Assembly (NCBI GenBank): GCA_026770705.1
Contig: JANJGN010000126.1
Coordinates: forward strand, 496,001 to 560,000
Direction: 5' to 3'
Length of the DNA stretch: 64,000 nt
Origin: Isurus oxyrinchus
Lineage: Eukaryota
Numbering within the stretch: the first letter of the stretch is position 1; the number at the start of each line of letters is the position of its first letter. A program made the position numbers and the translations under genes. The notes under the pieces are model-generated. The model was not told the DNA's origin. It made no database searches and saw only the letters and a program-made list of their open reading frames with translations. This document shows positions 4,770 to 62,609 of this stretch, piece by piece.

Positions 4770-6160
4770 GTCACAGAATCACAAGTTCGCACAGTGCAGA
4801 AGAGGCCCTTCGGCTCATCAAGTCTCCACTGACACGTGAGAAACACCGGACTTACCTAACTAATTCCATTGACCAGCACTTGGCCCACAACCATGAATGT
4901 AAGGACGTGCCAAGTATTCATCCAGACACTTTATAAAGGATGTGAGGCAACCAGCCTCCACCACCCTCTCAGGCAGTGCATTCCAGACAGTCACCAACAC
5001 CTGGGTAAAAAAGGTTTTCCCTCACATCCCCGCGAAACCTCCTGCCCCTCACCTTGAACTTGTGTTCCATCGTGACTGGGCCTTCATCTAAGGGGAACAA
5101 CTGCTCCCTATCCACCCCGTCCATACCCCTCACAATCTTGTACACCTTGAACTGGTCGCCTCTCAGTCTTCTCTGCTTCGCTGAAAATAACCCAAGTCTA
5201 TGCAACCTCTCTTTCTAACTTAAATGTTTCAGCCCAGGCAGCATCCAGGCGTACCTCCTCTACACCATTTCTAGCGCAATCACATCTTTCCTATCATTTG
5301 GCGATCAAAACTGCACACAGCACTCCCACTGTGGTCTCACCGAGGTTCTATACAACTCCAACATGGCCCCTCTACTTTTGCAATATGTGCCTCGACTGAT
5401 AAAGGCAAGTGTCCCAAATGCCTTCTTCACCACCCCATTAACATGCCGCTCTGCCTTCAGAGACTTATGGACACAGGCACCAAAGTCCCTTTGTTCCTCA
5501 GATCTTCCTGATGTCATGCTGTTCATTGAATACCTCCTTGTCAAATTACTCCTTCCAAAGTGTATAACCTCACGCTTTCCAGCGTTAAGTTCCATCTGCC
5601 ACTTATCTGCCCATTTGACCACCACGCCAATATCTTCCTCCAGCCCAAGACTCTCAACCTCACTGTAAACCAGCCAGCCAATCTTTGTGTCATCCGCAAA
5701 CTTACTAATCATACTCCTCACATAGTCATCTATGTCATTTATATAAATAACGAATAATAGGGGACCCAGCACAGATCCCTATGGTACACCATTGGTCTCG
5801 AGTTTTCAGTCACTAAAGCAGCCTTCTGTCATCACACTCTGTCTCCTACAACTAAACCAATTTATAATCCATCTTATCAAATTACCTTGTATCCCATGCG
5901 CATTTGCCTTATTTATATGGCTGCCATGTGCGACCTTGTCAAAGGTTTTTCTGAAATCCATATATACTACATCAACTGCACTACCACCATCTACACACCT
6001 GGTCACCTCCTCAAAAACTCAATAAAATTTTTTAGGCATGACCTACCTCTGAAAAATCCATGCTGAATATCTCTTATCAAACCTTCTATCTGCAAGGTAA
6101 GATAGATTCTTTCCTTCAGAATTTTCTCCAATAGTTTCCCGACCACTGACGTGAGACTCA
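4770..6160 (-). mobile_element. CR1 LINE fragment (RT domain to 3' end)
   Basis: ORFs LGPLLFVIYINDID..ISKFADDTKIG, VDVVYMDFRKTFDKV, QHGFFRGRSCL, RLGLFS..RRLRGD. Confidence 0.93.
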
Positions 6161-6560: not shown

Positions 6561-7526
6561 TGTTTCAGCTACATAATTCTTTATGCAAAGCTCTTATAAA
6601 GTGTAGGGCAATAGGTCTGTTTCAACTATCATTGGAAGACATAACGAGTGATAATATGTACACAGCATGAATGCCTTGGATTGTGTTTTCTTCTGAGAGC
6701 AATGCTCAATCTTGAGACTTTCGGTGCGGTTGTAAGTCACGACACGGGAAATTTCAAATAACAGTAAGTGTGTAGTATTTACCCACGACTGGGATATGGG
6801 GTCATTGCGAAGCGTAACCCACAATTTCATTCTAATTACTGTTTCTGTATCAGGATGGCAATAAACTCTTATAGTGCATTTTGGATGGTGAAGATAATAT
6901 TTCCATTAAATTTGGTATTTTTTTTTTGTTCTGGCCAGTTGCAATTTGTAATCATTTAAAAGGGGAGATTGTTGCCAATGTGACTTGTACTATATGATGA
7001 CCCTGCGGATTTTGCCTCCATTGCCAAATCGAAGAGGTGAACAAAATGTTTACTTTATCTGTGTCTGTAACACTTCAGTTCCCTGTTCTTATGTTTATTG
7101 GAAAACGAGTTCAAGTGTGAGACGGAGCCTGCTCAATGTAGAACAATGGATGGGGACAGTGTTCCTTTCCATTGCAGGGCGCCATCAAGATCCAAAACAT
7201 AGGAAGGAGGGATAGCGAGGTTCCTACATTTAATGCTGAAACTTTGTTGCCAAGTTATACATTTTTGTTGGACACTTTGTCTCCTGCATGAAAGTCGAGA
7301 CACCCCGACACCTTAGGGGCAGTTGGGAATGTACCAGGCCCGTGCTGGAAAGGGGACAAAAAATAAAAACTAAGTGGGAAAATGCAGAGTTAGTTATATA
7401 ATTCTGAATTCACACGTCAGGCAGGAGGTAACTCTGTTTCTGCGGCTGAAAGCCATATGGAACATGTACAACAACAACAATTGGTGGGGTATAATGTAGA
7501 ATTCATGTTGGATTTCACTGCTTTCA

Positions 7527-8434
7527 TCATTTAAATAATTTAACAATCAAACTCAATGGATATTTCAAGCCATTCTTTAACTTCTGTCTGAATTTACTCT
7601 GGGTACCTGCACAAATAAACAGGTTGATGCAGGACCTTAAAAGCTGCAGCATAAGTCTGCATTCCTCCTGTATAACATTTGATTGATTGAAATTCGAGCC
7701 ATCGAAATAACTAACGCTGGCAATTCGTGCACAAAGGAAAGTTATAAGAGCAAGGAAATATAACAGGATGAAACTTGCCGAGATGGCAAAGAGTAAAACG
7801 ATGGACTTTCTCCTCTTCTCCATCTCTGGGTCACTTTGTTTCTCGCTCTTGCTGTGGGCTCGGAGTCTTCTGCGGGCTCGACTGGCCACAACAATGTGCC
7901 TGACCGTCAGAACATTGAGCAGCAAAATAAGAACGAATGAGAGACAAGGGGTTAAAACGGCATTTATGCTGTCATATACCACCCATCCGGGTGATGAATA
8001 TAATATTGGCTTTAGTTTGCAGTACCAGGGTGTATTGTCTGTGATAACAGAAGGTTCACAAGCAAAGTACAAGGGTATTTTTTTAGCACAATGCACAACG
8101 CAGACAGTTCCTATGACCACAGCTGCCGATTTCTTGGTGCAATATTTGGTTTTCAGCTTCTGGTAACAAATGGCTACAAATCGATCAAAGGTGAAAGCAA
8201 CTGTCACCCAGACAGAAGAATCCCTGACGCCATATATGAACACAACACTGAGAGCAAAGGCCGGAGTGATGGAAAGGAAACTGAATGGGAAATATGTACC
8301 TACAATCCGGTTTAAAATCACAGCAAGGATCATGATCAGGAGATCCGTCACGGCCAACGACATCAGGTAGTACATGATACATCCAGTGAGACCGCATCTT
8401 CCTCGAGACAGGATCACAATTACTGCCAAATTAG
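7527..8434 (-). CDS. GPCR gene A exon 2: GPR139/GPR142-like class A 7TM receptor (intact; 325 aa with exon 1)
   Basis: Acceptor ctgtcaaAG at 8436-8435, phase 1; open frame ANLAVIVILSRGRCGL..LAVTDLL..AFTFDRFVAIC..PWYC..LTP..DPEMEKRRKSIVLLF..NLFICAGTQSKFR to TGA; 70+908 nt = 326 codons. Confidence 0.9.
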
Positions 8435-9815
8435 CTTTGACAGAGGAATATAACCAGTAAATTTGCGTTGTGGACAAATGAATATAGAACAGAAAATATT
8501 GAGAAACTCACAGATACAGCGTCGGTCATGAAAAGAGAGCAATGTTCCCATTTCAGTCCTATGAATTATGTGCTGTAATGGAGAAAAAAAGACTCATTCC
8601 AAAATGCAGCAAATTATCAATACTGTGCTGCTGATTTACAGGAAGAATGCGGGCTTGGCCCTATAGTGAATATTCAAATTGCAGAATTGTTACTCAGTTA
8701 AATGAAAAACGATCAAGTATCCTCTTGCTTGCTGTTTAGAGAAGAACAGGCTAGAACATTGGAAAACAGAAGGGACACAATGTTAAATCGACCTAGGAAT
8801 TTGACAGAAACTCAGTAGATGGCTTTGAATGGAATTAAATACAAAGTGTTGCTGCTGTGGGCATAATCCAGCAAATGAAAACAACTAAAATGTAAAAAAC
8901 AAACTCCTTTGGATGGAAATAAAGAGTAACTAGAACTCCTGAGTTATGATGACGTGCAGCGAACACAACTGTCCTTCACAGCAGGGAGGAAATCCACACA
9001 CAGTTAAAGGTTCAATTGCTGCTAAGTTGAAAGTCGTCTAGCTTTGGAGTCAAAATATCCTGGATTCAAGACCAACTTCAGCTCCCTGAGAATTCTTCAC
9101 CGCCCAGGGTGCCAGGTTTCTGCTAAGACAATAAACTCTGGGCCAGTCATTTAATATTCTGCACAGATTTATCAGATAAATACTGTTCATATTCCAGCGA
9201 TAGGTGAAAGGGAAATGAATGAGATAATACAGATACAGTTCCTCTGTAATAATTCACACACGGTGAGAATGCCACTGACACAACAGAAAAACATTTTCTC
9301 AGTGGTAACAGCGTTATACATCACCCTTTTTAAAAACACCAAGCATAAAATAAAATAACATCTGAAATCTCGAACGGTGGAGGTAAACAGATGAAAGTGT
9401 CCAATTAAACTGACTAAATATTACTAGCTCAGGCAAGATAGTGCATTGTTACTGCTGAACTATTATTCTGGCGTTGGGGAGAAATTATGGTCAAGGGAAG
9501 AAATGACACGGAAAAACTTGAGCGACTCGACATGTGATGACGACTCATCATGTCAGTAAATGAGCTGTGTTGCTAAAACGGAGAATTAAATTAAACATTT
9601 CCCTTGAAGTGGAAAAAAGTGTCATTGTCGAGAGTGATAAAGTGGGAAGATGTCGCGTAATGTTGATAAATTGTTCTCTTTAATGGGAGAAAGAATATAG
9701 TACCATGCAGAAGCCAAGCTCCTAAATACGAACAACGATTCACTAAAATGAAAGCAAACCAAAGAGAAGGGATTAAACAATGATTTCAATAACATAGCAA
9801 ACCAAAATACTTAAC

Positions 9816-9885
9816 CTGGAATCCCGATCGCTGCAAGGACGGGATAGTATATGATGAAAATCAGACATTTTGGCAATCCATGCAT
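9816..9885 (-). CDS. GPCR gene A exon 1 (MHGLPKCLIFIIYYPVLAAIGIP)
   Basis: 70-nt exon, ATG at 9885, donor CCAG|GTTAAG, phase 1 matching exon 2; YYPVLAAIGIP resembles the TM1 start of GPR139-like receptors; 1381-nt intron. Confidence 0.88.
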
Positions 9886-9935
9886 TTCTGTCACCAGCTG
9901 CGAGTGTGTTCTGCACCACAGCTAAAGACAGTCAC

Positions 9936-9971
9936 ATATATATCTCAGGCCAGCCTCCAGGGAGACAATTA
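9936..9971 (-). promoter_or_regulatory. Gene A core promoter: homeodomain site, O/E(EBF)-like site, TATA
   Basis: Minus strand TAATTG-tc-TCCCTGGAGG-11 nt-TATATAT, about 50 nt above the ATG; conserved in paralogs. Confidence 0.6.
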
Positions 9972-10109
9972 GACGCTTTGATCTTTTGCAATAATTACGG
10001 TAATTGAAATAAAGATGCTCATGCTGCAGCTGTCAGGAAATTGTTTTTATTTTGACAGAGTAGAAACCTCTTCAAGGTCACTGACATTGTTCTGACGGAA
10101 CATCCTCAC

Positions 10110-10949: not shown

Positions 10950-11865
10950 ATTGAAAATAGGAGTACGATTACTCCTTCGGAGCCCTTCGAGCTTGCTCCG
11001 CCATTCAGTTTGATGATGGCTGATCCTCTATCTGAACGCCTTAGACCGGCTCTCTCCCCACACCCCTTGATGCGTTTGAAGGCTAGTGGTCTATTTATTT
11101 ACTTCTTAAATATATCCAGTGACTTGACCTCCAAAGCCTTCTGTGTTAGAGAATTCCAAATGTTCGCCACCTTTTGATTGAAGACGTTTCTCCACATCTC
11201 AGTCCTAAATGGTCTAACCCGTATCCTGAGTCTGTGACCCCTTGTTCTAGACGCCCGAGCCAGAGGAATTATCATCCCCGCATCCAGTCTGTACATTCCT
11301 GTCAGAGTTTCATATGTTCCAATGCGATCGCCTCTCATTTTTCTGTTCTCCAATGAATAAAGGCCTAGCCGGCCCAAGCTCTCCTCAAACTATAATTCTG
11401 CCAGGCCAGAAAACAGCCTGATGAACCTTGGCTGAACTCCCTCTACGGTAGGTGTATCCTTTCTTAGGTAAGGGGACCAGAAGTGCAAACGCTACTCCAG
11501 GTGTGATCTCACAATGACCATGCACAGCTGCAGTAAGACATCTTTGCTCCTGCACTCAAATCCTCTCGCAATAAAGGTCAACGTGCCATTTACGTCCTTA
11601 ACTGGTTGCTTTCAGTGATTGCTGCACAAGGACATCCCAGTCCCTTTGCACATCAACATTTCCCAATTTATCACCATTAAATAATATTCTGCCAATCTGC
11701 TTTTCCTGACATAGTGGATAACTTCACACTTACTTTCCCACTCACTCAACCTGTGTAACTCGACTTGAAGCCTCTGAACACTCACCTCTTCATGCACATC
11801 CTCACCAAGTTTCGTGTCATCAGCAAATTGGAAATATTGCCTTTTGTTGCGTCATGCAAATCATT

Positions 11866-20912: not shown

Positions 20913-22663
20913 AAAATACGAAACAGAAACATTCTGAATCTGAATTCATTGTATTCTACGTATTTTTTTTCCGGAATTAGGTCTTTTCCATCTTTTTTTT
21001 AACTGTGAAGCCTTGAGGGTCAGATGTCTACTGTTTAGCTTCTCCGGATGTTTGGCTGCAACAGCAAAGAATTAAAGATTGCTTTATGTGTTCCCGCGAT
21101 TTCTGTGTCTTGTGTTCAAGGACTTTTTGGCAATGATACAAATGCTGCACAATGTAGCTTAATTGTTACTTCAATAATGTCATTAACACCTGAATTTCTT
21201 AGTTAAACAGGTCGTTTACTTTACATGCCTAGATATTAATTTACATTGATATCGAATTAAATTTAAATAGCGATGGCTGTGGTGTGTACAAAGCTCATGT
21301 AATTTGTTGATGGATAATGTGAATTCATTTCAATTGACAGGGGATGACAGTTGATTCGCAAGATTTGTATTTGGGTCTCAGCTTTTCACCGCATTTAGAA
21401 GGTTCGAAATGAAGCAATAGTAAGTTTCGTATCCAAATTGCTGCCGAAAATAAGCCATGTGGCACAGTAACTATTTTAGATAAGAAGAGGACATTGCGAA
21501 GGGTTGTTGTTGGATAACTGAATGAGCAAACTGTGGAAGAAGGAATATAATTTGTGGGAGGGAGATTTTTTTTGTGGCGCTTTGAGCTCAACCATTACAG
21601 ATCAGCATATTTTCTAATTGGCGCGAAACTATAAATGATAGTGGTATGTATTTATCCGTATTTCTGTTTACCCTCCACATGTTTATTCGTAAATTTATCA
21701 AATAGTTGCAATCGATGAACAGTTACCAAGACTTTTTTTTAACTCTGTTGCTAATGTTAGTTGCTCCATTCAGTTCTCCTAAGATGCATTTTGTTGTCAA
21801 GGCTGTGTAATACTCATCGGAGCCAGTATTTATTATTCTCACAGCCACTTTATTTCGGGGATCTAAATTTTGAAATATCAGTGTTCAAGCCCTGGGTTTG
21901 AGCCCTACTCCCGATCGCGAGTCCCTAATCTAGCTGCATACTCCTGAGGAAGGACAGCACTATCTGCTCTGTCGCTCTTTTGATGAGACTCTAAACGGAG
22001 GTATTTCTGCTTCTTCAATTAAAAATCTTCACTAATAATACGAGACCTAATCTCCCACTACAGCAATCATTGAGCTGCAAAAAAAAAAAACCGCTGATGC
22101 TCTTTGACCCGTTTCCACAGGAACTAAACCCGAATTGAATCAACGGCATTCATTCAACTTTATTTTCCGTCGTCCCGTGGTTCCCTCATTTATTTCTTAG
22201 GAATGAGTTATTTTTCATCTCTTATTTCCTGTCATTCTATTGCTTTAAGTATTATAGCGGTTTAACATTTCATAACGTTATTATTTACCGGATTTTAAAC
22301 GACTAAATATATTGATTTATTATCTGTACGTTATGCCATCTTCAGGCTGCCCTTTTGTCAATTTAATACGTTAGTCTTGTTCAATTCCTGCTACCTCTAG
22401 ATTGCATAAACTTTACAAGAATCAGAAAATAAGTGTTTTGTGTTATTTCATGTTCCAACTTCCAATGTATTTGGGACAATATTAATAAAAAAAATCGCAC
22501 TACATTATTAAATTAATCAGTTCCAGCGTTGAATCAAGTATTCATGATACAAATTCCATACCATTCTCCCCCCAAACTGCAGGTGTAGCTGAGGGTTTCA
22601 GCACTAATTCTGTTCTTCTCACTCTCCTCTTTCTCTCTCTCTCTCTCTCTCTCTGCCTTACAG

Positions 22664-23569
22664 CTAACTTTCTAATGATTGTGATCTTCTCCCCAGGAAC
22701 TTGTGGTTTCTCCTGATGTATCACGCAGTATCTGGTATCCATGGTGGTGACAGAATTCCTTGTCATTAGCATTAGCGTGACAATAAGCCCATTTCCGGCT
22801 GTTTATTTTCCAGTCAGTTTTCTGTCCACCATTCCTCTATGTCGTCTTTGTTGCTTTAAACTCTGGTTCAAAAGGTTGTACTCTCTGGTCAACCTTCAAG
22901 TTCACCTTTTACTGTTCCCTAGCCAATTGTCACCAGGAGCTGAAAATGAAATACTGCAGTTAGAAAACAGCAGCTGGAAATTTAGGAATGATCTGTGTGC
23001 AGTCCTCTTTAATAAACACCCCTTTTTATTTCATATATGAACTTATTTATATGATTAACAACGTAACTCGGTGCTCTATCATAGATGATGCATTTTATAT
23101 TTATTTCCATGGAGAATGTTTGACTGGCTGGACTGTATTCTAACCCCTTGTCTCTCCTTTCTCCTGACTTTGCTGCTCGATATTGAGGCATCCTGAAATA
23201 TTCTACTGGTAAGTAAATCCTGCAGCAGACTCTGATCCCACAGGAATGGAGAGAATATGAGTAAGTCAGAGATGAAGAGCCACAGCAAGTCTATTGTTGT
23301 ACTCTTCTCCATCTCAGGCAGTTTCCTCCAGCTGGCCTTGAAGCATATTGTACGTTTCCTGTTTGCACAAAGTATGGGAAATAGCTGATCTATCAGTTCC
23401 ATTTCCATTGACACAAAATTTATTCTGCAACAAAGCCGATAGTTTTTTAACTCCTTAGACCCTGTAAGGATACATTTATATCTGCAGGGTCCCAGACTAA
23501 ATACAAAGCGGAGCTGAAAAGGGCGTTTAAATACTCTTTCACTCTATTGCCAAATGGCATAAACAGTGA
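22664..23569 (+). pseudogene. GPCR pseudogene E (full-length decayed exon 2; exon 1 not found)
   Basis: Acceptor ttacAG|CT; ANFLMIVIFSPGTCGFS*CITQYLVSM (TGA 22714), YFPVSFLSTIPLC, SIVVLFSISGSF, SAGSQTKYK; several frameshifts. Confidence 0.88.
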
Positions 23570-26520: not shown

Positions 26521-26784
26521 GATCAAGAGTGAGAACTTTGTAATGTCTTCCTGCGGGGTTTAAAGCCATGGATGCTCATGCACAGTGCTCACTTTCACAA
26601 TTACAATGGCTTATTTGGCTTGTTATTTAAATTTTAGGAAAAAATGCAACTTGGGCCGTACTCTCCTATCTGATTATTTCAATTTGGAGCCGCGCCATTG
26701 CCCTTGAAAACAGATTCTATTCCATCAAAAACATAAATGCGAGCGCGGCAGCAGCTGCACTAAAATGTTTTTTTTCAGTTAGTG

Positions 26785-26845
26785 TAATTAATGTAAAAGG
26801 CCAAACCTTCCCCTTGTCTCCCTAGAGGCCGACATCATGTATAAA
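26785..26845 (+). promoter_or_regulatory. Gene B core promoter: O/E-like site and TATA (adjacent homeodomain site mutated; TAATTA upstream)
   Basis: TAATTA 26785-26790; cccttg-tc-TCCCTAGAGG (26819-26828)-11 nt-TATAAA (26840). Confidence 0.6.
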
Positions 26846-26896: not shown

Positions 26897-29130
26897 ATGC
26901 ATGGGATACCAGAAGGTGTGGTGTTTGCCATTTACTATCCTGTTCTTGCAGCTATCGGTATTCCAGGTAAAGTATTAGGGTTAGTTACCAGTTACCAGAA
27001 TCATTTTTCTATCACTTCTTTAATTTAGCTGTACTGCTTCTCTATAGTTCACCCCATTAACAGGATAATTTGTTATTTATAATGTTTTCCCTTTTTTGCA
27101 GTATCCTTATCTCTACGTTTAGTGCATTCTTCTTTTAAATGATATTAAGCCTTCCCTTTCCTCGCAATATTACTGCTCATTACTGGTCTATTTTCTCCAC
27201 TTTAAGGGTATCATTTCTCCCCTTCACGAGAATAGTTTCTTCCCATTGCCAGTATACTTACTTCCATTTCAGGGATTACTATGTTTGCTTCACCAATGCC
27301 TTTTCATCTCTTTAATTAAAAATGTTCTCCCACTTAGCAGTGCAGCCTCTCAGTCTAAATGTAATTAGATGTTGTTATTGTCATTATTAATGTGGGCGAA
27401 GTATTTAGCACACTAATATCACAGTGCAATGTAGATCAATTGTATTATTGGCACTGTCACCATGGATGATTTATTACGCTGTAAATGTAGCTCTATTGTG
27501 TTATTTTCACAGCTATTGAATTACCTCATTTTGCCATGTGCATATATTGCTCCTTGCGCTGGAATGTGACTAACAGCTATTTCTTAAGTTAGATTTTGTA
27601 TTCACGAGTTATTGGACCGGTCCTCATTCTTTTGTTTTCACTGAAATATAGCATATCGGGCAGTGCAACATTGCTGAAGTTCAACAGTTGGGCTTGAATG
27701 CTAAACCTTTTGAATCAAAAGTGAGATTGCTACAAACTAAGCCACACCTGATCCATAGTAAGCATGATCAGCTTTACTCGTGGCTGTGAAGCCTTGTTCT
27801 TTTAACTTCGAATTGTTGCAGCTAAGATGCATCAGATCTCCTTCATCTTTTTAGTTAAGTACTAGCTTTTCTTTTGCTGAACTTTTTTCAAGCTCTGTAA
27901 AGTATTTGTTAACCTTCGATTTTCCAATGTTTCAGAGTATTCTTATATTTTCTCGTCTCTAAACATTAAATGAGAACAACACTGATTGTATTTCAGAGTC
28001 ACAATCCAGGATGTTCAATGTTCACCTTGGGTGAGCCCTTAGTGTTGTTGACAGTACAGAACAGATTGCTGTGTTTTAGGATATTTTCCTCTAGATCATT
28101 TCTCTGACATGCTAACTTGTTCCTCTCTTTTCAACTGCTGCTTGAATGAGAATTTCCACCATTTTATGTTCTAAATTTCTTTCTCAACATCTGCTATTCG
28201 CTGGCTGCGTTCCGCTGTCACAGCTAATCTGGCAGTGATTCTGATACTGACTCGAGAAAGATACGGTCTCTCCAAATGTATCACTTACTACCTGATGTCC
28301 ATGGCCGTGACGGATCTCCTTGTCGGGATCACAGCTGTGTTATTAAACCAGGTTATAGGTATTTATTTCCCATTCAGTCTCTTGTCCATCACGCCGGTCT
28401 TCAGCCTCAGACTTGTGCTAATTTATTGTGTCATCGATTTGTCTGTGTAACAGGGGCTTTCACCTTTGACCGATTTGTAGCCATTTGCTGCCAGAAGCTG
28501 AAAACTAACTATTGCACAGAGAAAATGGTGGCTGCGGTGATAGGAACTGTCTGTGTACTGAACTGTGTTAAAAGCATCCCCTTGTATTTTATGTGTGAGC
28601 CTGCCTTTATTATTGACAATATACCCTGGCAATGCAACACAAAATCAATATTATATACATCACCTGCATGGGTCACTTATGAAAGCATAATCGCCGTGTT
28701 AACCCTCTGCCTCTCCTTCGTTCTTATTTTAATGTCCAATGCTCTGACCAACGGACACATTGTAGTGGCCAGTCGAGCCCGCAAGAGACTCCGGATCCAG
28801 ATCAGTGCAGAGAATCAAAGTGACCCAGAGATGCAGAAGAGAAGGAAGTCCATCGTTTTGCTCTTCTGTATCTCGGGCAGTTTCATCCTGTTATATTTGT
28901 TAAGATTTATAAACTTCCTCTATGTCCGAATTGCGAATCTTAGCTATGTGGACTCTACCAATTTCAATGAATCAAATTTTCTTATGGAGGAAAGCGCACG
29001 TATGCTTCAGCTCCTGAGTTCCTGCGTCAATCCGTTTATTTATGCAGGGACCCAGAGTAAATTCAGAGAAGAGTTAAAGAATGGTGTGAAATTCCCACTG
29101 AATCTGCTTGTTAAATTATTTAAAAGATGA
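26897..29130 (+). pseudogene. GPCR gene B, GPR139/142-like, with a single 4-nt frameshift (exons 26897-26966 and 28224-29130)
   Basis: Exon 1 MHGIPEGVVFAIYYPVLAAIGIP, G|GTAAAG; acceptor cacAG|CT; relative to gene A, CTGG is missing at ~28446 (TCT GT^GTA ACA); the rest is open with DRF and NPFIY. Confidence 0.88.
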
Positions 29131-42905: not shown

Positions 42906-45719
42906 CCCTTCTACCTTTATCAACGTGGCTAACAGGACAGCAGGAAATGAAATCGGCTGAAGATTTATAAATGATAAATGAAGATAATGTCCTTATGCAG
43001 TTTTATAACTTTTTAAAAAATGATTTTGTTGGTCATTTTTGGGGCCCCTTTAGAGATGGGACTCTTCCCAATTGGCCAACGGAAAGTGCAGAAGATGAAT
43101 TGATGGTCTTTTGCCATCGCAATCCCACAGTCCGCTGTTTATATATTTAGGGGCTCAGGTGTTTGCTGTAAAGCGGTGCTTAGTCAGTGGAGAACAATTC
43201 CTGAGGAAAGTATGTGCATCCATTTCGAAGCGTATCCAACCATCAAGATCAGAATCATTACTGGGGCGGGACGCGGGGAGATTGTAGTGCTTTATCCACA
43301 TTTCATGTTGGAATGTGTAAGAAATCAGAGATACGACACTTAGCCGTCCACATGAACGTAGAGCTACTACGAGGACTACAAGGACCCTGGATTCTGATGG
43401 GAATAAGACAGACCACAGAAAATATGGGGAAGAGAACATTTAACTACCAGAGAACAGATACTGACACTTAATTGTGCTCGGATGTATTGCGCCTTTAACA
43501 GTCTTATTTTCAAACTGAGTGACTGTTAACTAGAATGGAAAACAATGCGTGGCATCGACAAGAAGGGGAAAGGATGGAATCTTGTGTACAGTTGAAGTTG
43601 GATTCTGCTGTCCTTATCGTCCAAATAATTTAACAATTTCAAGTAGTGGATATTTCACCCCATTCTTTAACACCTCTCTGAATTTACTCTGGTCCCTGCG
43701 TAAATAAACAGGTTTGCGCAGGAACTCAAAAACTGAAGCATGTATGCTTTTTCCTCAAGAATGAATGTTGAAAGATTGATTTCAGAGCTTGATAAGTATT
43801 TAACATTTCCAATTTGCACATAGAGGAAAGTTATAAAAAGTAACAAATATAAGAGGATGAAACTTCCCGATACACAGAAGAGTAAAATGATGGACATTGT
43901 CCGCTTCTCCATCTCAGGGTCACGCTGATTGTCTCCATTTCTCCGGGTCTGGAGTCTCCTGCGAGCTCTACTGGCTGCGAGAATGTGTCTGACTGTCAGG
44001 ACATTGAGCAGTAAAATCAGAATGAATGGGAGACAAGGGGTTAAAATGTGATGAATACAGTCATAGGCGATCCATGCAAGTGAGGTATAAAATATCACTT
44101 TTACATCGCAGAACCAGGGCACATTGTCAATTATGTACAAAGATTCGTATATAAAATACTGGAAGGTGTTTTTGACACAGCTGATTGCGCAGATTGTCCC
44201 TATAACCCGTGCCGCCGTTTTTTTGGAACAACATTTTACTTTCAGCTTCTGGTAACAAATGGCCACAAATCGATCAAAGGTGAAAGCTGTCGTTAACCAG
44301 GCAGAGCTGTCTATGGCTGTATATATTAGGGCTTCACGGAGACTGCATACTGGTGTGATTGACAGGAAACTGAGTGGGAAATAAATACCAGCAGTCCGGT
44401 TCAATATCACAGTGGTTATAATGAGCGGGAGATCTCACACCGCCAGGGATTGTAAATAATAGGTTATACAGGTGGAGATACCGCATTTCACTCGAGAAAG
44501 GATCACAATCACCGCCAGGTTAGCTGCAATAAAGAGAGAGAGAGAAAGAGAGAAGTTGGAAAGAGACTGAGTTTGTGTGTGTGTGAGTTTGGGAGAGAAC
44601 GAATACAGGAAGGTTACTGCTCAAACTATAAACAAATCAACAGTTGTATAGGATTCTGCATGAATTTGTATATTTCAGATGTGTTCCCCAGTTGCGAAAT
44701 TGTAATGGGCAAGTGATTCAGCTTTGTAAATTGAAATCTTAATTCAATATAGGTCAGGTCAAAGTTATATGAATGTCAAATATTTTAATAAAAACTAATG
44801 GAGAACAAAAGACATCGTTAACACTGAGAAACCAACCTAGAATTTCTGTATAAGCAAGAAGAAAGTGTACGCATCTGCAAGGCATTGCAGGAAATAATGA
44901 CGAAGGTAAGTAACAAAACAAGCAACAAGAAGTGTGGAAACTAACAAGGGCGCAGATTATATCTCACGGAAGATCAATATAGTTCCTTTCCTATACAATA
45001 ATTGGCAATAATTATTGAAAATTATTCGTTGTTGTGAACTTTGGGAATTAAACCTGCTCAAAAATATCGACATACAGCGAGAAGTAAAGGGGCAATGAAT
45101 GATTTCTGATCTTCCAGACAGGGCGTTTGCCTGCATGTGAAGATACATCCTAGCTCCTCACATATAGTCAACTGGAAGATCGGTGTCGATCTGAACCTTT
45201 GGAAAAGTCTCCTTCCAAGTGAGGTCCCTCTTGCAATGCAGCACTGACTCCGTACTGCATTGCACTTTCCGGGATCAACTATCAACGTTGTCCTGTAATG
45301 GATATTTCAAATCAAAGCATTGCGCCTGAGATGTGAAAGATGCAGCCAAGTAGGGAGCCTCATTCAATATGAACAAACAGCAGAGACGGGAAAATGTGGG
45401 ACATTTCCCGGTGATATCAGCAGAAGGAAATTCCGGCGTCAACAGTGGTCAAGTCGAAGCGTCAGCAGCAGTTCAAGAACCAATTAGTGTTGGAGACTGA
45501 GAGCAGAAACACACCTCTGTGATCGTGGTGCTAATATAGAATATTCATCAAAAGTCTATTATTACATTGTTCATACATCTGTCAAAAACTGGGTGCTCAT
45601 GATGTCCTTCCAACAAATTCATTGGGGGAATATTGAATGTTACATTGCTCTCTATCAATGAAACATTCGTGGGAATTGTTCGATCATTGTCAATGTGATC
45701 AACACAACAGATTTACATT

Positions 45720-46140
45720 TGCACCGTGAAAACAGTGTGATAGCTCATCCACAGTTCGACTGTCAGTAACAGAAGATGATCCATTTCACAGTGTGTTTAA
45801 AATGTGATAACCTAACCACAGTTCGACTGTCAGTAACAGAACACGAACATATTCATACTGTGATTAAAGTGTGATCACTCAACCACAGTTAGACTGTCAG
45901 TAACACAAGGTGATCACATTCACACCGTGATTACAATGTGATAATTCACCTTCAGTAACGATACCGGAAGCACAATGGAAAAACATTTAGACTGTAATGT
46001 CATTGTTAAAATACACCAGCAGTAACAGAAGACAAATACATTTGCACCGTGATTACAATGTGATAATTCTCCTTCAGCAACAATGCCAGTAACAGAATGG
46101 AAAGGCAATTGCACTGTGATAACAGTGTGAAAATACACCA
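45720..46140. repeat. 67-bp minisatellite in the gene C intron
   Basis: ccacagtt(c/a)gactgtcagtaaca at 45749, 45816 and 45883. Confidence 0.85.
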
Positions 46141-46169
46141 GTACTAAATGGTGCAAAACACCGTTGAAG

Positions 46170-46570
46170 ACGGTAATATAATACCACTTACAACGAAAAA
46201 TTACACCCTTATAAGGGGGATATTATACCGCTAACAACGAGAAATTTCACCCTGAACAGGGTAATATTTTACCATTAACAGCGAGAAATTGCACACTTTG
46301 CAGAGTATGATAGCACTTAAATTGTGAAATTTTGTTTTTAACAAGGTTATATTATGCCACTAACAGCGAAGAATTGCACCTTTAATAGCATATTATTAAG
46401 CCATTAGCGGCGAGAATTTTAGGCAAAGGGAACAAATTATATTGTCAAAATTGAGACATTATACCTATAAAGTGGGGAAAATGTTCTTTTAGAGGGGTAA
46501 AATATACTTGTTAAAAGAGGGAAATTGCTCCATTAATGGGGAGAATTGTACAGATAAAGGGCGGAATGGG
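46170..46570. repeat. 44-bp (2x22) minisatellite near the gene C splice donor
   Basis: tacc..taaca.cga anchors at 46182, 46226 and 46270. Confidence 0.75.
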
Positions 46571-46789
46571 AGAATGGTTATAACGTTATGGATATACAAT
46601 GCTTTTAAAAGGTAGAATTCCTGCAGGTAACCGATTTCCGTATCAAAATACTAATTACAATACTTTACCTGGAACCCCGAGAGCTGCAAGGACTGGATAA
46701 TAAATGGCAGACAGAAGGTCTTTTGGTGATCCGTGCATTTTCAACAAATGTTCTGAAAGCCTTCTGCACATCACTGAAAGATTGTCACA

Positions 46790-46824
46790 TTTATAACTGA
46801 TGTGAAGCGCCAGGGAGTTAATTA
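46790..46824 (-). promoter_or_regulatory. Gene C core promoter: homeodomain site, O/E-like site, TATA
   Basis: Minus strand TAATTA-ac-TCCCTGGCGC-11 nt-TATAAA. Confidence 0.6.
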
Positions 46825-47619
46825 GGTGGTTTGATCTCTTGCATTAAATACATTAATTTTCAATAATAACAGTTCAGCCCAGCTGCTTCAGGACTGACGG
46901 TTATGTTTTGGGAGAATAAAAGGTTTTTTTTTTCAATGGAGTTGACACCCAGAGATTGCAGCATGATCACAATTTCTTTTCTCAGAAAAAGATACCGACC
47001 TGGATTTTGTGGTCAGGGGTGAATGAGAGGCCTTTGGCCCTGATTGCTCTGGAGAATCCCAATTTGACTGGTTCACTGGCTGCCGCCAGAATTTAAGCCT
47101 TTGGCTGATGCATGGTCCATGGACAAAATGATCTGTGAAATGTAGCATCGGGGTGACTTCTGACGACGGCCGCCCCTGCTGACGTCACGAGCCTGATACA
47201 AGTTCCCTGCGGTCCCTTTTCAGGCCAAAGGCAGATGGGTGTTTTGTTATGATTTAAAACACTTCTACGGACTTTAAAAATTTTCAAATTTTTCTAACAC
47301 TTTCATATACTTGAAAAGCCTTTTAAGCACTAAGTGAGTGCTGCACAAGTGAATGCACGCTGTGGTAGAAAATGCCCCGATGCAAGAATTTTCAAACAGG
47401 ACAGGAAATGTGACACAGGCTGCAGGATTGTCATGTGATATTCGATGTTCACATGCTTGTCTAATGTTATAAGTTGCAACGCGAGATTTTAAAGCAGCCT
47501 CAAGATAATTGTACACTTACTGCTTTGGAAATTATGCACTGCATCACCTTACTGCAATTCTCTCATGAATTCGGCCACGCTGCCTCTGGCTTTTCGTTTC
47601 ATAGACTTCTGTTTTCAAC

Positions 47620-54890: not shown

Positions 54891-55292
54891 AATTATCAGT
54901 TCACTTTTTACTTTCTGATCGCGGGATGATCATCAACCATACATCCTTTAGGACTGTTACTGCTTCTGACCATCCCCTGGGACTTGTGTTATGTTCATCG
55001 CCTGAGAAATGAATTGATAACGCGAAATTGCTGGGCAGAATTTTTATCACCAAAACAATCAGAACTCTGGATTTGAATCTATTTATTTCTCAAGGTGTGC
55101 TGAAAGCCTGCAAGATTCCATAATCTGTTTCTCACGAAAGTGGCTGACGTCATGTGCTTGCTTTGAATGAATTATCTTTACAGGAATGCCATGTTGTTTT
55201 TATTATATTTTTCCATAGAAATTGATGGAATGAAAGGGTTAAGGCATCTTGTTGGTTAAGTGACTGTACTTAATGTCAGCCAGTGTATGGTT

Positions 55293-55330
55293 AAATTGAA
55301 TCACTGGAGACTCTTCTCTGCCTATATCTA
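55293..55330 (+). promoter_or_regulatory. Gene D promoter remnant: degenerate homeodomain and O/E-like sites, TATA-like box
   Basis: AAATTG-aa-TCACTGGAGA-12 nt-TATATC. Confidence 0.4.
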
Positions 55331-56959
55331 GGCAATGTGTTCACTGTGTATATCAGTGCTTGGAAGAGTATAGTGGCCCCCAATATTAAAGGCGATCATT
55401 AGATCTCACAGAAAATGAGATCATGTTTTGGAATATTCCAGCTGAACGTCGGATCCTGTGGGTAATTTATAATTTACAAAGGATTTACTAACCACTCCTC
55501 GCTGCTGTTAGTATTCCTGGTGAGTGATTATTTTAGAAATGTATTTTACAAAACATCTTTCACTGTGTTTGCTGTCCTTGTGCTTTATACGAGCTAATTA
55601 ATTTATTCTTTGGTATTTTTGCGTCGTGTGGCATGTAATTCCCTACGTTTCTGTCAAGTAGCATTTCACCAGTTGTCGATTCCCTGTTCGCTGTTCCATG
55701 GACCGTTTTTATATCTCACGACTTGCTTCAATTGATTTTTTTCTGCATAATTTGGCTGGTTGAATATTTTACGCAATAAATATTAGCGATGAATTATAAA
55801 TATTGAACAGCTGCAGTCTGCTCTCTGAACTGAAACCCAATATCACAGACGAAATATATTTTGCAGGTATTGGTTTTGCGGTCTGATGGAGGTTGTAATT
55901 TGCACTGATCTGTGGCAATCAGAGCAGGCAGGAACAAGAGAGAATCTCCAAGAATGATTCAGCTCCAAGCAACTTGTATTCCACCATTTCCCGCTTTGCC
56001 TAACAGTCACAAAATCTATATTTTTAGGACAGGGTATAAAATGTAATAATTGTTCAACAATACTTGCTCCCCTCACCAACAATTGGCTCCGTTCCCATTT
56101 CTGTCAACAGACCTAATTTCCTTCCCTTGTCTCTGCATTACTTTATTCAGAGCTGTAAGTCATTATCCCCCTCCCACAGGTTTTTATTTTCAAAATATGT
56201 TCTTGGGACATGGATGCTTGTGACAAAGTTCCATTTATTACCCAGCCAGAGGTGAGCTGAGAAGTTGTTGCTGGGTCTTCTTGCTGAGCTGAACTATTCC
56301 CTCTGCTGACGGTGCTCCTACCTGGTATTACGGAATTCCAGAACTCTGATGAAGGGAGAGGTTATTGGTCCAAGTCAGGATGGTGCGTTAGAGAAGGTGA
56401 ATCTTGCGGCATTGCACACCTTCTGCTTGTTGCTGTGCTGGTACGTGCTGTCGAAGTAGGCCGGGTGTTTTGTTGTTGTTGATTATGTAGAGATTCTCCC
56501 TGCATCCACAAAGGTGGAAGCGGTGAAATATCGAGTTTAATGATGAACGGTCACTGATGGAAAATCTATTCCATTTTTGAAGGTGATTCTGCTTATTGTG
56601 TGTTGATTTGATACCCATTCCGATGAGTAGTGAGCATTCCATCATTTTTCATGCGTGAGATTTCAAAGCTTTTGTTTGGTTTGGTGGGAGGCGTGCTGTG
56701 GGTGTTGGGCTGGGGGGTGGCTGCTAGTGGGGACTAGTTCAGCGCACTCCCACCAAACTGCTGAACACCGAACTTCTTCAACATGTTCCTCAGTTGCTGA
56801 TACAGTTAATAGTTCCATCTGCTTAGCCACTGTTCTTCTCCTGCTCCAATCTGTAGCCATCACCTCTGCTCTTGTAAATAAACAACCCCTGATGCCTCAG
56901 TCCTTGTAAGCAAACACTCCATCTCTAAGCTCTCTTTCCTCTGCAAATTCCTTGTCCCT

Positions 56960-57160
56960 GCTGCTACCCCCCACGTTTCTGCGCCACCTTCCAGGGACAC
57001 CATGCTTAAATCCTTCTAACCATTTTTCTCCCTTATTACAACTCTTACACCGTCCTTAGTAAAGGCACAAATTCTATCTTATGTGACTATGCTAATGTCA
57101 AAACCCCTCTCCTTCCTCTTCTCGACATGTCTGCAGCCTTTGGCATGGGTGGCCACAGTG
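56960..57160 (+). mobile_element. L2 RT fragment
   Basis: Degenerate LVK.TN.ILCD..LL.LLDMSAAF..V.H motif. Confidence 0.6.
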
Positions 57161-58254
57161 AAATATTAAGACTTTCATGTTCTGAATTACCTCCTAAATC
57201 TGTTGTCCTCGCTACAAACGTATCATCCTTTAAGATAATTCTTAACATGTGTTCTTTTTTGTTATTCCCCCTTCGCCAGCCTTCTTTGACCTGGTCTCCA
57301 TTTCCCTTTTGTGTAATTTCCCTCTATCTGAAGCTGGTGTCTGCAGTTCATTGCGGTGAATTTGATTCTGATTGCATCATTAACCTGGATCGCCCGATGC
57401 CAACAGTGGTAAATATTGAAATATCTGCCGCTCTGCACATCAGGACCAATCGGAAATCTTGATCCAGGAGCATACATGGTAATTATCTGCGAACTTTAAA
57501 CTTCTGATGGGCATAGCTGTACTACCCGGGCCCCTCTAACAATGACCCCAAAACTGACGTCAGTTTTGGACTCTTGTGCCTGCTGTGTGACACATGCTTG
57601 CCCTAGAATTTTCCCGGTGTTAATTTCTAGCATGTGTCAGTGAATAACTGTGGGGCGCAGCCCATGCACGCCCAACCCCCATGCACAGACCTCCCACATT
57701 CAACCCACACAAAAAAAACCACATCACCCCCCAACTACTGACCCCAGAATGCGCAATCTGACCCGATTGCCTTCCCCTCGACCCACTTGCACACCTCTCA
57801 CTAGCCATCGCCCATCCATTCGCTCCCAACCGACTGCAAAGCACGTTAACTACTCGCCCATCCCCAAAACAACTACTAACCACCCCGACATCGTCGCACC
57901 TCATGCACACCTCATCTCCCCCACCCCACTACGTGGGCAAGAAAAACAAGCTGCAAGGGTGGAAAAAAATAGGGCTTTAATTATATTTACAATCAGTGCT
58001 GATCATCCGAGTATCACCACCAAATGGGAGGCCAGGACCATTAACTTTATGAATTATCTTTCATGTTAATTTACACACACATCACTGTCCTGTGTTAATA
58101 TTGCACAATAATCTTTAGTTTCCCTGAGATAGTAACACACACGAGTGGCATTCTATCCTCATCCAGCGTTTCAACAGGTGAGACACCAGTAAATAATTGT
58201 AAATTTTCATAACTTGAGTGCTCAGGTACACAGACTAGAGAAAGCTAACATGCA

Positions 58255-59470
58255 ATATATTTTATTATTATCCAATCATGTGAAATGGGCTTCGTTGGCT
58301 GGACCAACATTTATTACATATCACTAGTTGCCCTTGAAAAGGCGGTGGTGATCTGCCTTCTTGAACTGCTACAGTCCATGTGGTGTATGTGCACACAAAG
58401 TGCTGTTCGGAAGGGATTTCCAGGATTTTGGCCCAGCGATAGTGAAGGAATGGCGATATAATTCCAAGTCAGGAAGGCGAGTGATTTGGAGGGGAACACC
58501 AATCTGGCGGTGTTCACATCTGTCTGCTGATTGTGTCCTTCTAGATGGCAGTGGTCAGGGTTTGAAATGTGCAGCCGAAGGAGCCTTGGTGATTTCCTGC
58601 AGTTCATCTTGTAGATGGTACACACTGTTGCGACTGTGCGATGGTGGTGGAAGGAGTGAATGTTTTTGGGTGTGCTGCCAATCCAACGATTGCCCTGAAT
58701 TGTGTCAAGCTTCTTGAGTGCTTTGGATGCTGCACCCATTCAATCTAGCGAGGAGCATTCCACCACACTCCTGACTTGTGCCTTGCAGATGGTGGACAGG
58801 CTGTGGAAAATCAGGAGGTGAGTTATGCATCGCACTATTCCTAGCCTCTGACCTGCTCATGTAGCCATAGTATTTAGATGGGTCGTTCACTTCCGTTTCT
58901 GGTCAATGGTAAACCCCAGGGTTTGATACTGGGGATTCATTGATGGGAATGCCATTGAATGACAAAGGGCGATGATTGGGTTCTCCTTTGTTGGAGATGG
59001 ACATTGCCCGACAATTGAGCGGTGTACAAATTACTTGCCACTTGTCCGTGCAAGCTTTTGTATTGTCCAGGTCTTGCTGCATTTGGGCATGGGCTGCTTC
59101 AGTACCTGAGGAGTCGTTAATGTTACTTAACATTGTGCAGTCATCAGCGAACATCCACTTCTGACCATATGATGGAAGGAAGGTCATTGATGAAGCAGCT
59201 GAACATGATGGACCGAGAACACTACCCTAAAGAAAACCTACAGTGAATTGCTAGAACTGAGATGACAGACCTCCGACAACCACAACCATCTCCCGTTGTG
59301 CTAGGTGTGGTTAGAAGCAGCAGATATTTCCCCCCTGATTCCCATTGACTCGCGGTTTGCTAGGGCCCCTTGATGCTACACTCTGCCAAATGCTGCCTTA
59401 ATGTCAAGGGCAGGCACTCTCATCTCCCCTCGGGAGTTCAGCTCTTTTGTCCATGTTTGAAACAAAGCTG
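58255..59470 (-). mobile_element. L2-like LINE (RT to 3' end) in the gene D intron
   Basis: MFADDCT..QQDLDN..DKWQV; KKLDTIQ..HSFHHHRTVATVCTIYKMNC. Confidence 0.88.
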
Positions 59471-59489
59471 TAATGAGGATAGGATACAA

Positions 59490-60075
59490 TATTGCAGCAA
59501 GTGATTAGGATAATAAATGGCAGTGATCCCTGTCTTCGAGTAAGGAACCTGTTCATAGAATTATGCATGTGATTGTTGAGAAACGATATGGATTAATGTT
59601 TACAGTTTCGGCCTCCTTGCCTACTGAACAATATACGTATCTAATCAATCAATCAATCAATCAATTTAGACGTGCATTTTCTTTAAGTTAGAGGATGGGT
59701 GATTATCTCATCGAGTCATAGAAAATTATTTGGTCTCCTCATTGGGTAAACGCTGAGAGAATGTTTTCCTTAGCTGGGGAGTCTAGAACTCGAGCCCATA
59801 GCCTGAGAATAAGCTGTTGGCCATTTAGGATTGAGATGGGGAGAATCTTGTTCTCTCAGAAAGTGGAGAATCTTTGGCATTATCAAATCTATACGGCTGT
59901 TGGTTTCGATACAGTCAAGAAAGTGGTCGACAGATCTTTGGGCTCTAAGGCCATCAATGTAAATGAGGACAGTGTTGAAAAGTAGAGGTCGAAAAAAGAC
60001 CATAGGCTTAGTCCACATTAGACTTGGCCGTAGGGAACAATTGGCTTGCTCTTGCTCCTAGTTCCTGCATTCCTA
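59490..60075 (+). mobile_element. CR1 3' fragment containing (AATC)n
   Basis: MFSLAGESRTRAHSLRI..FSQKVENLW. Confidence 0.75.
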
Positions 60076-62609
60076 TGTAACAACCACAAATCCCAACCAC
60101 TGGCCCATTTAGTTCCTGGTCCAAAACACGCACATCCGATCCATTGGTAAAATCTGTCCTGCTTACCAACCTGAATTTGGGATGCTGTCACTCTCTGCTG
60201 CTCCTTTCTGTTGGCCAGTATCCAGTTCTGATTCAATCTCTAATTTATTTTCTTCACTTTAGCGATCCATTTACCTAACCTGTTCGTTTGTTCTTTTCGA
60301 GAGTGTGTGTGTTACTGGGATACAGTCTCAGGGTTCATTGTGGCTTTTGGGAGAGCAATAATTATCAGGAAGACACATTCGGATATCCTGATTTGAAAGA
60401 CAATTTATGAATGAATTCAAATCTGTATTTACTTCTTTACACAGCCTTATTATTCCACTCAGCTGTCTTGTCAAATAAAAAATGAACCATTTTCCTTCAG
60501 TACAAATCATAGCCCATCCTATAAATGATTTTCCAATGTTCGTGCGTGCAGTTTGGAGCATGTTCATGGGATATTGAGCAGGACTAGTAATGGGGTGAGT
60601 GATTTTCACTCCGAACCCCATGAGTAAGGTCAGGAAATGATGCTGGGACCTGCTGCTGCATTTGGTTTCCTGTTACAACAGGATGGTGTTTAACTTGAAA
60701 CCCGCCCTCCAGCGGAAAGTTCAAACACTGGTATAGCAATTAGATTCTGACCTTGGATAACTCTTCAAATTTCAGTCTGCAAAAGTTGCTCTAAGTTAAT
60801 CAATAAATTTCCTGTCTTTCTCTTCCTTACAGTGAACTTACTGACTATTGTGACCCGGTCTCGGGGAAGGTGCGGTCTGTCAAAAAGTGTTTCCCGTTAC
60901 CTGGTGTCCATGGCAACTGCGGATCTACTCGTCGTTATCCTTGATCTCATATTCAGGCAAATTGCTATTCGTTACTGGGCTCAGTTTCAGTTCATATGGA
61001 GGATTACAGTGTGTAATATCCATGCAGTCCTGCTTTATGCAGCCACAGATTGTTCTGTCTGGTTCACAGATTCTTTCCCCTTGGATAGATTTCTGGATAA
61101 TTATTCCCACAAGTTGAAAACAAATTATTGCACCGAGCATACGGCGGCTGTGGTTCTCAGAACAGTCAGTCTGCTGTTCTGTGTGGAAAGCACTTGCTGG
61201 TACTTTATGTATGAAGGTCAGTATGCAATTTCCAACGCTCCTTGGTTTTGCACATTAGTGACTGGTGCTGATCTTTCGTCAATGTGGGCAGCAATCGAAT
61301 TTTTTCATTATATTTTAACTCTATTTGCACCATTTGTTTTTATTTTGGTGTTGAATGCTTTAACTGTCAGATATATTTTAGTGTCGAGCAGAGGCCGCAG
61401 GAGACTCTGGGTTCACTGCAGTGGGGAGAATGCCAGTGACCCAGAGATGGAGAAACGCAGGAAATCCATCATTTTACTGTTTCCTAGATCGGGGAATTTT
61501 ATCCTGTTGTGGGCAATCTTTATGATCTATTCTGCTTGTAATAGGCTATATTAGTTAGATGCTATTCCTGAAAATCTTCCTAAATTTGTGCACGAACTGG
61601 GGTTTATGTTTCAGCTCCTGAGTTGTTGCACCAACACGGCTATTTATGCAGTGACCTAGACTCAATTCAGAAAGGAGCTGAAGAATGTCGTGAAATATCC
61701 CTTTTCTGTAATTGTTAAATTTATTAAACAGTGAGAAGAATTTCCATTTTCAATATGAGTTTAACCTGTTTGTTTCCCAATCTCTTCATCTCGGTGATGA
61801 GCACAGGGTGAGGCTGGTTTCCATCTTTCACCGCCAGGATTCAGTGACTAACAGAAACGCTGCATTTGGGAAGTAATTTACCTCAGTCCTGTTTGTCCTG
61901 CTGGTTTTCCGTCTGTTGCAACTGTCCGGTTCGCCTTGGGACTGGTTTGTGAAATTCCCACCCACCAGGCTCGAGTTTCATGTCATTGCACAAAGGGGGC
62001 TTTGAGGACAAGGTCAATCGGGCAGGTTACAGTCCAGGGGCGGACATGCAGCATTGTCTCCACTATCCCAGGGAAACCTTGTTCAAAACATTTCGGACTA
62101 ACCTGCAGATGGCAGGGTGGTTTTCAGAGGTTCAAAGGTCAGTGATTTCAGCTTTTCAAAATCTTTCTGTGATTTTATTCCAGTATTTATTCCAGTCCCA
62201 GAACCTCAGAGTGGGGAGTCTCCTCGTTTCAAGTAAAGGTTTATTTCCACTGCACAAGTTATGTCTCAGTGAAATTCGTCAATTTAAATGTCCCCCTGAA
62301 CACATCCGGAAAAAGTATGTTCAGGAGAGGAGAGTTAGGGGGGGGGGGGGGGGGGGTGGAATGTGCTCAGAACTGAAATAAAAAAGTGAAATGTGGGAAT
62401 AATCAGCAGCCCTCGCTACCTTTGTGTAGAGAGAAACAGACTAAAGCTTTAAGGGCTTCCATCAGTGTTGTGACACCCTTAGGTGATGCAAAGGCTTCCT
62501 CCTTCTGCAGCAGTAACTGAAGCATGTCATTTCAAAGTGTGGGGTGTGGGGTGAGGGGGGCTGGCGGGCTAAGTGGGAGTTTATTTTGGTGGGGGTGGCG
62601 GTGGCGGGG

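Follow-up and report, generated by a model that had tools for sequence, protein, structure and literature searches.

Four paralogous receptor genes in a 64,000-nt stretch of Isurus oxyrinchus DNA (GCA_026770705.1, contig JANJGN010000126.1, positions 496,001 to 560,000, forward strand; this whole stretch is referred to as the window) are preceded by a homeodomain-type site, an O/E-like site, and a TATA-like word. Is this arrangement a selected promoter or a remnant of shared descent, which factors might bind it, and in which cells might the receptors act? A sequence-only reading had called the genes olfactory-receptor-like and suggested that they may be driven in olfactory sensory neurons by the code of mammalian olfactory receptor (OR) genes.

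Four promoters and the genes behind them

The four motif strings quoted in that reading were all verified in the sequence, as were a CAGCTG E-box placed 60 to 70 nt 5′ of the O/E-like site in A, B, and C (found at 63, 61, and 63 nt, respectively) and further TAAT sites in the same three promoters. No CAGCTG was present at D. The additional TAAT sites were located 21 to 25 nt 5′ of the composite, and they were part of a second module with a fixed 39-nt offset. In all four cases, the motifs were located at least 52 nt 5′ of the first coding exon of a two-exon GPR139-like class A GPCR gene. A search of the window against Rfam yielded no match. The features, in window positions, were as follows (4D, fourfold-degenerate sites).

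TAATTG 9971-9966, TCCCTGGAGG 9963-9954, 11 nt, TATATA 9942-9937, minus: composite of A, read from the sequence
9966..9971, minus: homeodomain-type site TAATTG of A; family columns changed at 0.41 to 0.55 of the 4D rate
9954..9963, minus: O/E (EBF)-like site TCCCTGGAGG of A; family columns changed at 0.55 to 0.64 of the 4D rate
9937..9942, minus: TATA box of A; short-clade columns changed at 0.17 of the 4D rate
9986..10011, minus: second module of A, 39 nt 5′ of the composite; family form TTGTTCAGTGACTGTAATTAAT
10027..10032, minus: CAGCTG E-box of A, clade-limited and not significantly constrained
9816..9885, minus: coding exon 1 of gene A, 23 codons plus G, phase-1 GT donor
7527..8434, minus: coding exon 2 of gene A; modelled spliced ORF intact, 325 aa, 7tm_1
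CCCTTG 26811-16, TCCCTAGAGG 26819-28, 11 nt, TATAAA 26840-45, plus: composite of B, which has no TAAT
26752..26845, plus: promoter of B; E-box 26752, module 26771-96, composite 26811-28, TATA 26840
26897..29130, plus: gene B, exon 1 26897-26966, exon 2 from 28224; frameshift near 28447, pseudogene
TAATTA 46824-19, TCCCTGGCGC 46816-07, 11 nt, TATAAA 46795-90, minus: composite of C, read from the sequence
46790..46885, minus: promoter of C; E-box 46885-80, composite 46824-07, TATA 46795-90
43623..46738, minus: gene C, exon 1 46738-46669, exon 2 from 44523; pseudogene, broken by a stop at codon 53 and by a late frameshift
AAATTG 55293-98, TCACTGGAGA 55301-10, 12 nt, TATATC 55323-28, plus: composite of D, read from the sequence
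55253..55328, plus: promoter of D; module 55253-78, composite 55293-310, TATATC 55323-28
55423..61731, plus: gene D (other main clade), exon 1 55423-55519, exon 2 from 60833; stop at exon 1 codon 23 and more stops in exon 2, pseudogene
22663..23445, plus: copy E, a fifth copy, decayed exon-2 remnant for which no exon 1 was found

Copy A was the sole intact gene in the window, a point that the sequence-only reading had not made. In A to D, a short exon whose end read YYP.LA..G.P, with a phase-1 GT donor, was followed 1.3 to 5.3 kb on by an exon of about 300 codons, and the phase-1 intron was located within TM1 (two coding exons, according to gene models made from the sequence). Vertebrate ORs, in contrast, have a single coding exon. 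Pfam assigned the family protein to 7tm_1 alone, and the best PDB match was GPR139, at a weak E value of 1.4e-4. The OR features Pfam 7tm_4 and MAYDRY were not matched, and the corresponding family motif was FTFDRFVAIC. Among the 106 candidates scored with the 7tm_4 profile in the genome, 2 were OR-family matches, and both were sited elsewhere than the family. Judged by sequence, the family genes are not ORs because they match 7tm_1 only, their best solved relative is GPR139, and 7tm_4 has just the 2 matches. Thus, the label "olfactory-receptor-like" gave way to that of two-exon GPR139-like class A GPCRs.

The genome contained at least 1,508 copies of the family, with many pseudogenes. This number came from an exact TM3 pattern; an exon-1 pattern gave 670 matches, the reversed control gave 0 for each, and both counts take in pseudogenes and any uncollapsed duplicates. 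Protein searches at E values of 1e-10 or better returned 1,539 proteins for query A and 2,491 for a second-clade query. Among the 120 matches listed per search, all named ones were from sharks or rays, one had no name, and most were called "probable GPR139." Proteins of the two main clades were often less than 50% identical. Near-full-length A-like copies at 90 to 93% identity carried stops in 18 of 24 cases. The family is very large and apparently undescribed: no description of a GPR139-like shark expansion or of its promoter was found in the literature searched (subscription papers lay outside the search), and a term search of a GPR139 review found no mention of sharks (PMC12208981).

Several side observations concerned the organization of the family. 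A divergent A/B pair about 19 to 20 kb apart recurred often, with D-like copies near (window 7527-29130; G000 C38, C42, C131, C146, C20, and C100), and the window looked like one unit of a segmental duplication with about 20 or more copies. Genome-wide, A-like copies were mostly broken and B-like copies were mostly stop-free in the matched stretch, which is the reverse of the situation in the window. Decayed exon-2 copies, some inverted, were located in the intron or just 5′ of intact genes at L046, L047, L050, L056, and L032 to L034. In the second main clade, the extracellular N terminus contained 14-residue repeats of the MDQNLRTIDWNVTT type, each with an N-x-T sequon and variable in copy number (loci L065 to L070, L152 to L154, and L158; proteins P0124 to P0239). 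The window also contained LINE-reverse-transcriptase-like ORF pieces, presumably of a CR1/L2-like family (400-1000, 5200-6070, 11100-11400, 58300-59230, and 62600-63500), and degenerate minisatellites with periods of 23 to 134 nt (45734-46298, in the intron of C; 32846-33016; and 54328-54455).

Recovery of the element and its rate of change

A pattern combining the A/C-type composite and TATA had 92 matches in the genome compared to 2 for the reversed control, and a family exon 1 was located 53 to 100 nt downstream in 29 of the 30 matches that were fetched (L030 partial). The count of 92 was inflated because the cassette was segmentally duplicated recently; sorting by eye left about ten sequence types, and the count was dropped as independent evidence. 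A shorter pattern that omitted TATA had 342 matches compared to 40 for the control, and many of the first 100 matches listed were on contigs without family matches. Two sequences, TAATTAACTCACTGGAG and TAATTGAGTCCCTGGAG, appeared as lone matches of the shorter pattern on many large contigs away from family clusters. These scattered matches are probably parts of repeats; possibly, they are dispersed composite sites.

The family promoter set was picked by coding sequence, not by motif, and consisted of 130 loci (80 chosen by exon 2 and 50 by exon 1). Exon 1 was found in 91 of these loci and in none of the other 39. The 91 loci, two of which had two donors each, and the four window genes supplied 97 donors, which were collapsed to 68 nonredundant promoters at less than 80% identity. 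Motif discovery on upstream sequence had been proposed as a check of the promoter grammar, and de novo expectation maximization (EM) on the upstream 550 nt of the 68 gene-chosen promoters ranked the composite cTAATTgtntCnCtgGaG first among the motifs found and TtgTtcAgTgACTGTAAT next. The consensus of the element was TAATT-R-nn-TCnCTGGAG. A credible composite, supported by the 39-nt offset or by position, was present in 50 of the 68 promoters, which included both main clades, and 18 had none. The EM figure of 65 of 68 was set aside because 15 of those sites lacked positional support.

The spacing of the element was rigid. In 33 of 46 promoters, drawn from both main clades, the TtgTtcAgTgACTGTAAT module was placed exactly 39 nt 5′ of the composite, and the spacer had diverged. 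A TATA-like word followed the composite in 47 of 50 promoters, at a distance of 11 to 16 nt. In 16 of 26 short-clade promoters, a YA dinucleotide was present at TATA+30/31, where a start site is expected; for A, the CA at this position predicts a start site near 9912. The intact B-type genes at L032 to L034 had no proximal TAAT. Three loci departed from the common form. The composite and TATA were tandemly duplicated, 46 nt apart, in the L045 subfamily (L045:7350-7500). At L043, unrelated sequence replaced the upstream module up to the composite, and the near-identical paralog L140 kept the module; L043 is therefore a natural deletion test of this module, and its exon 2 contained two stops. 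At L159, a perfect TCCC-AT-GGGA palindrome followed TTAATT about 270 nt before the donor, and its homology to the family site was unsure.

To compare rates, Fitch changes per column on the protein tree were set against those at 4D sites in exon 2. Nineteen short-clade genes were aligned blind to the motif, and 28 all-clade genes were aligned in segments centered on the EM site, a choice that biases the second sample. The 28 were drawn from 34 long-exon-2 genes by leaving out near-duplicates (L043 and L153), the tandem element (L045), and unsure sites (L070, L124, and L159). The P values assume independent columns and are guides only. Relative to 4D sites, the rates in the 19 and 28 genes were 0.41 (P = 0.003) and 0.55 for the homeodomain site, 0.64 (P = 0.018) and 0.55 for the O/E-like site, and 0.17 (P = 0.0002) and 0.38 for TATA. 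Neutral-like columns in the 19 genes changed at 1.10 to 1.15 (spacers), 0.99 (5′ UTR), and 1.34 (intron), and flanks in the 28 genes changed at 1.02 to 1.15. Taken together, the columns of the upstream module changed at rates not significantly below that of 4D sites (1.01 and 0.84); within it, just the ACTGTAAT core showed few changes. When promoters were anchored on the upstream module alone, composite columns exceeded flanks in conservation (P = 2e-4, with columns not independent).

Could the motifs persist through paralog kinship only, as the sequence-only reading had cautioned? The whole 190-nt upstream region was alignable within the A/B/C clade, and B, C, D, and the 18 stop-bearing A-like copies are broken, so the motifs there persist by recency; descent explains their persistence in B, C, D, and many recent pseudogene copies. 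However, shared descent alone fails for the family because the homeodomain, O/E-like, and TATA sites changed at 0.17 to 0.64 of the 4D rate and the spacers and UTR were not slowed. In addition, for pairs with less than 50% protein identity, motifs were 68% identical and flanks 25%, in an ungapped, motif-anchored comparison that inflates the difference. Family-wide, then, the motif was better kept than its neighbors and than fourfold sites, which was the point on which the promoter claim had been staked. The reading by shared descent only has been largely refuted by the rate test, and we regard it as highly improbable. We are confident that the element is a genuine promoter with rigid spacing, kept by selection in a very large receptor family.

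The element was absent within 1.5 kb of a small control set from the same genome, made up of two OR genes and two first exons that look V2R-like. The control genes scored 8.0 at best; the family median was near 19, and the 95th percentile of the background was 9.4. The V2R search gave just four exon-1 matches, with a weak ANF_receptor lead from the Atlas; by motif, we take two of these to be V2R-like, one CaSR-like, and one mGluR-like.

Candidate factors and cell types

EBF binds TCCCNNGGGA as a symmetric dimer (PMC4312928). In the 50 promoters, the best-kept O/E bases were C10 (48/50), C12 (45/50), G15 (47/50), and G17 (43/50), arranged as two pairs, each mirrored across the EBF dyad. Position 11, the third C in TCCC, was nearly free (A in 20, C in 19, T in 8, and G in 3 of 50); TCCC predominated in the A/B/C clade, and elsewhere the O/E-like site was often TCAC. 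In the family version of the palindrome, the third-last G was found in 4 of 50 promoters and the final A in 10 of 50; the MatBase form TCCCyngrgar allows A. The half that the earlier reading called O/E-like was degenerate, with the mirror-paired C and G bases as its best-kept part. Such a mirror-symmetric half would fit a symmetric dimer such as EBF on a weak site, which is short of proof that EBF binds.

Two rival readings concern the factors. The promoter might be selected and its second site might bind a non-EBF factor, such as an NK2-type or zinc-finger protein; here, the upstream TGTTTGTT forkhead-like and TAATTAAT sites would be part of a sensor code of gut endocrine or epithelial cells, as with GPR142. 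TCAC was as common as TCCC, TGTTTR or TTTGTT was present at −55 to −25 in 32 of 50 promoters, and GCCACTTGAG and TCACTTGAG forms, which we take to resemble NK2 sites, were present (L132 and L100). However, an NK2 core needs a fixed A and T, which the family has in 20 and 3 of 50 promoters, and the kept positions are mirror-symmetric instead. NK2 was rejected as the main reading on these grounds, and we consider a non-EBF factor of any kind unlikely. The other rival is B-cell or other immune grammar, in which EBF and an E-box would drive an immune receptor repertoire. EBF1 is a B-lineage factor (PMC4312928), and A, B, and C have CAGCTG. Across the family, however, the E-box was found in 10 of 50 promoters, all short-clade, whereas TAATT was constrained in both clades. 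The conserved E-box beside an EBF site that marks EBF/E2A control in B cells was not found: the rate of the E-box in the 19 short-clade genes, 0.81 of 4D, was not significantly reduced (P = 0.19). The E-box was thus rejected as part of the family code, and the earlier caveat that EBF plus E-box is B-cell grammar was weakened because the E-box was neither family-wide nor constrained. An immune repertoire seems very unlikely. We consider binding of the shark element by a homeodomain protein and EBF likely.

Our best explanation is that the element is the conserved proximal promoter of a shark and ray two-exon GPR139-like family, likely bound by a LIM-homeodomain protein and an EBF dimer and probably active in chemosensory neurons; taken whole, we put it close to, and a little below, an even chance. 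We infer both the Lhx2/Emx2-type and EBF/COE identity of the factors and the cell type. In the proposed mechanism, a homeodomain-type site and an EBF-like half-palindrome would act at fixed spacing just 5′ of TATA. Each copy would have a compact Lhx/EBF module of its own, probably of low affinity, joined to the core promoter; therefore, duplication would copy a complete expression unit, which would suit a birth-and-death sensor repertoire. Given a selected element with the layout of a mouse smell-receptor enhancer, the genes may be chemical sensors that have been overlooked. Olfactory neurons are probably the most likely single site within this chemosensory reading, and expression of the family there is a serious possibility that we hold tentatively.

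The same factor classes, homeodomain and EBF/COE, might instead act in a non-olfactory sensory or neural cell. Candidates are skin or oral chemosensory cells, the lateral line, electroreceptor organs, and brain neurons, as for GPR139. Constraint and dyad symmetry are silent on tissue, EBF1 also has a role in the sensory epithelium of the inner ear (PMC12951292), GPR139 is mainly a habenular and striatal brain receptor (PMC12208981), and expression of shark V2R-like genes extends to gills, skin, and other sites (PMC11979771). However, adjacent homeodomain and O/E sites at such spacing have been described for olfactory enhancers (PMC7804114; PMC11643329), and more than 1,000 copies with many pseudogenes would fit an outward-facing sensor better than a brain receptor. 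We regard a non-olfactory cell as fairly unlikely. No RNA dataset was listed for window positions 7400-10100. Contigs of four sequencing runs, which have no recorded tissue and which we guessed to be RNA, had 16, 2, 10, and 6 partial matches, nearly all less than 90% alike. These matches, paralog pieces that could be DNA, covered exons and a short piece of one intron but no promoter sequence, and they were discounted as evidence. A search for olfactory marker protein (PF06554) gave no match.

What is known of shark olfaction gives the chemosensory reading its interest. Syed et al. reported that sharks have very few ORs, none of them expressed in the catshark nose, that V2Rs dominate, and that shark noses lack ciliated olfactory neurons, with microvillous markers labeling the whole neuronal population (PMC10116579). 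The main text of Mayeur et al. does not name GPR139, and its top 50 olfactory-library genes include no GPCR (PMC11979771). A whale shark paper described cartilaginous fishes as having few GPCRs (PMC8455134). Sharks are thus portrayed as poor both in olfactory receptors and in GPCRs generally (PMC10116579; PMC8455134), a tiny known repertoire at odds with their keen sense of smell, and a family of at least 1,500 copies with a selected, olfactory-enhancer-like promoter makes this mismatch directly testable. Sharks and rays might even have a fifth, mammal-sized olfactory repertoire of GPR139-like genes, with the Lhx2/EBF composite, which serves in mice as a remote enhancer motif, fused to each TATA promoter, a proposal that we rate as doubtful. 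If it were true, the composite code would either go back to the jawed-vertebrate ancestor or reflect two separate recruitments, and shark olfaction could no longer be put down to a few dozen V2Rs. The family is also a natural series for the evolution of rigid Lhx2/EBF spacing, and it bears on whether singular receptor choice can work when no remote enhancer takes part. Should the tissue lie outside the nose, the promoter would still be a way to identify the cell type that uses this very large receptor family.

Comparison with known systems

The orphan class A receptors GPR139 and GPR142 are the nearest named receptors: the best PDB match was GPR139, and the database names of most relatives were "probable GPR139." The similarity is distant, however, and the names are automatic, and the shark family is a multiclade expansion of at least 1,500 copies rather than a conserved single gene. 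B-cell EBF1 sites (TCCCNNGGGA, PMC4312928) share a dyad-symmetric C-n-C-NN-G-n-G core with the shark site. Most shark copies differ from these sites in having at least two mismatches, a fixed homeodomain neighbor, and no family-wide E-box.

The closest match in layout was the Lhx2/Ebf composite that Monahan et al. defined in mouse OR enhancers, the Greek Islands (PMC5608512). In the shark element, TAATTR occupies positions 1 to 6 and the O/E core positions 9 to 18, a register equal to that of the mouse composite. The Sfaktiria probe, TAATTG-AT-CTCCAAGGAA (PMC5608512 supplement 7), aligned with the shark element without gaps, and the MatBase O/E consensus ...abTCCCyngrgar (Young et al., PMC3247239 Table 1) fit best in the register that also matched this probe and the printed composite pattern (PMC11643329, preprint). 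Iwata et al. found the composite to be required in the J element (PMC7804114). Thus, the order TAATT-R, two bases, O/E core is common in orientation and register to the shark element and the Greek Island composite (PMC5608512; PMC11643329; J element HD2, PMC7804114). The published 20-position pattern, with "[4]" taken as four repeats by assumption, had no full match among the 50 promoters, 8 matches with one mismatch, and 19 with two; position 7, a purine, failed in 43 of 50. This pattern was also loose, with a mean of 1.16 mismatches compared to 1.28 and 1.56 for one-base shifts. The Greek Island composite is an intergenic enhancer motif, whereas the shark element is promoter-proximal, one per gene, 11 to 16 nt before TATA, lacks the position-7 purine in those 43 promoters and often the outer 3′ purines, and belongs to non-OR genes. 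By its bases, the shark element has the Greek Island layout, yet it is no member by published pattern or location.

Adjacent homeodomain and O/E sites had been presented as the signature of mammalian OR promoters and enhancers alike. This was borne out for enhancers, which have the same spacing, and not for promoters; "OR promoter grammar" is a loose term because, in mouse, the adjacent composite is a mark of OR enhancers and OR promoters are depleted of it (PMC11643329). Mouse OR proximal promoters have O/E-like and homeodomain sites and TATA within 200 bp of the presumed start (PMC3247239). They share this trio with the shark promoters, in which all three elements stood above their flanks near the predicted start. 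In mouse OR promoters, however, composites are depleted and TATA boxes are not conserved above background (PMC3247239), whereas in the shark family the spacing is rigid and TATA is the most constrained element.
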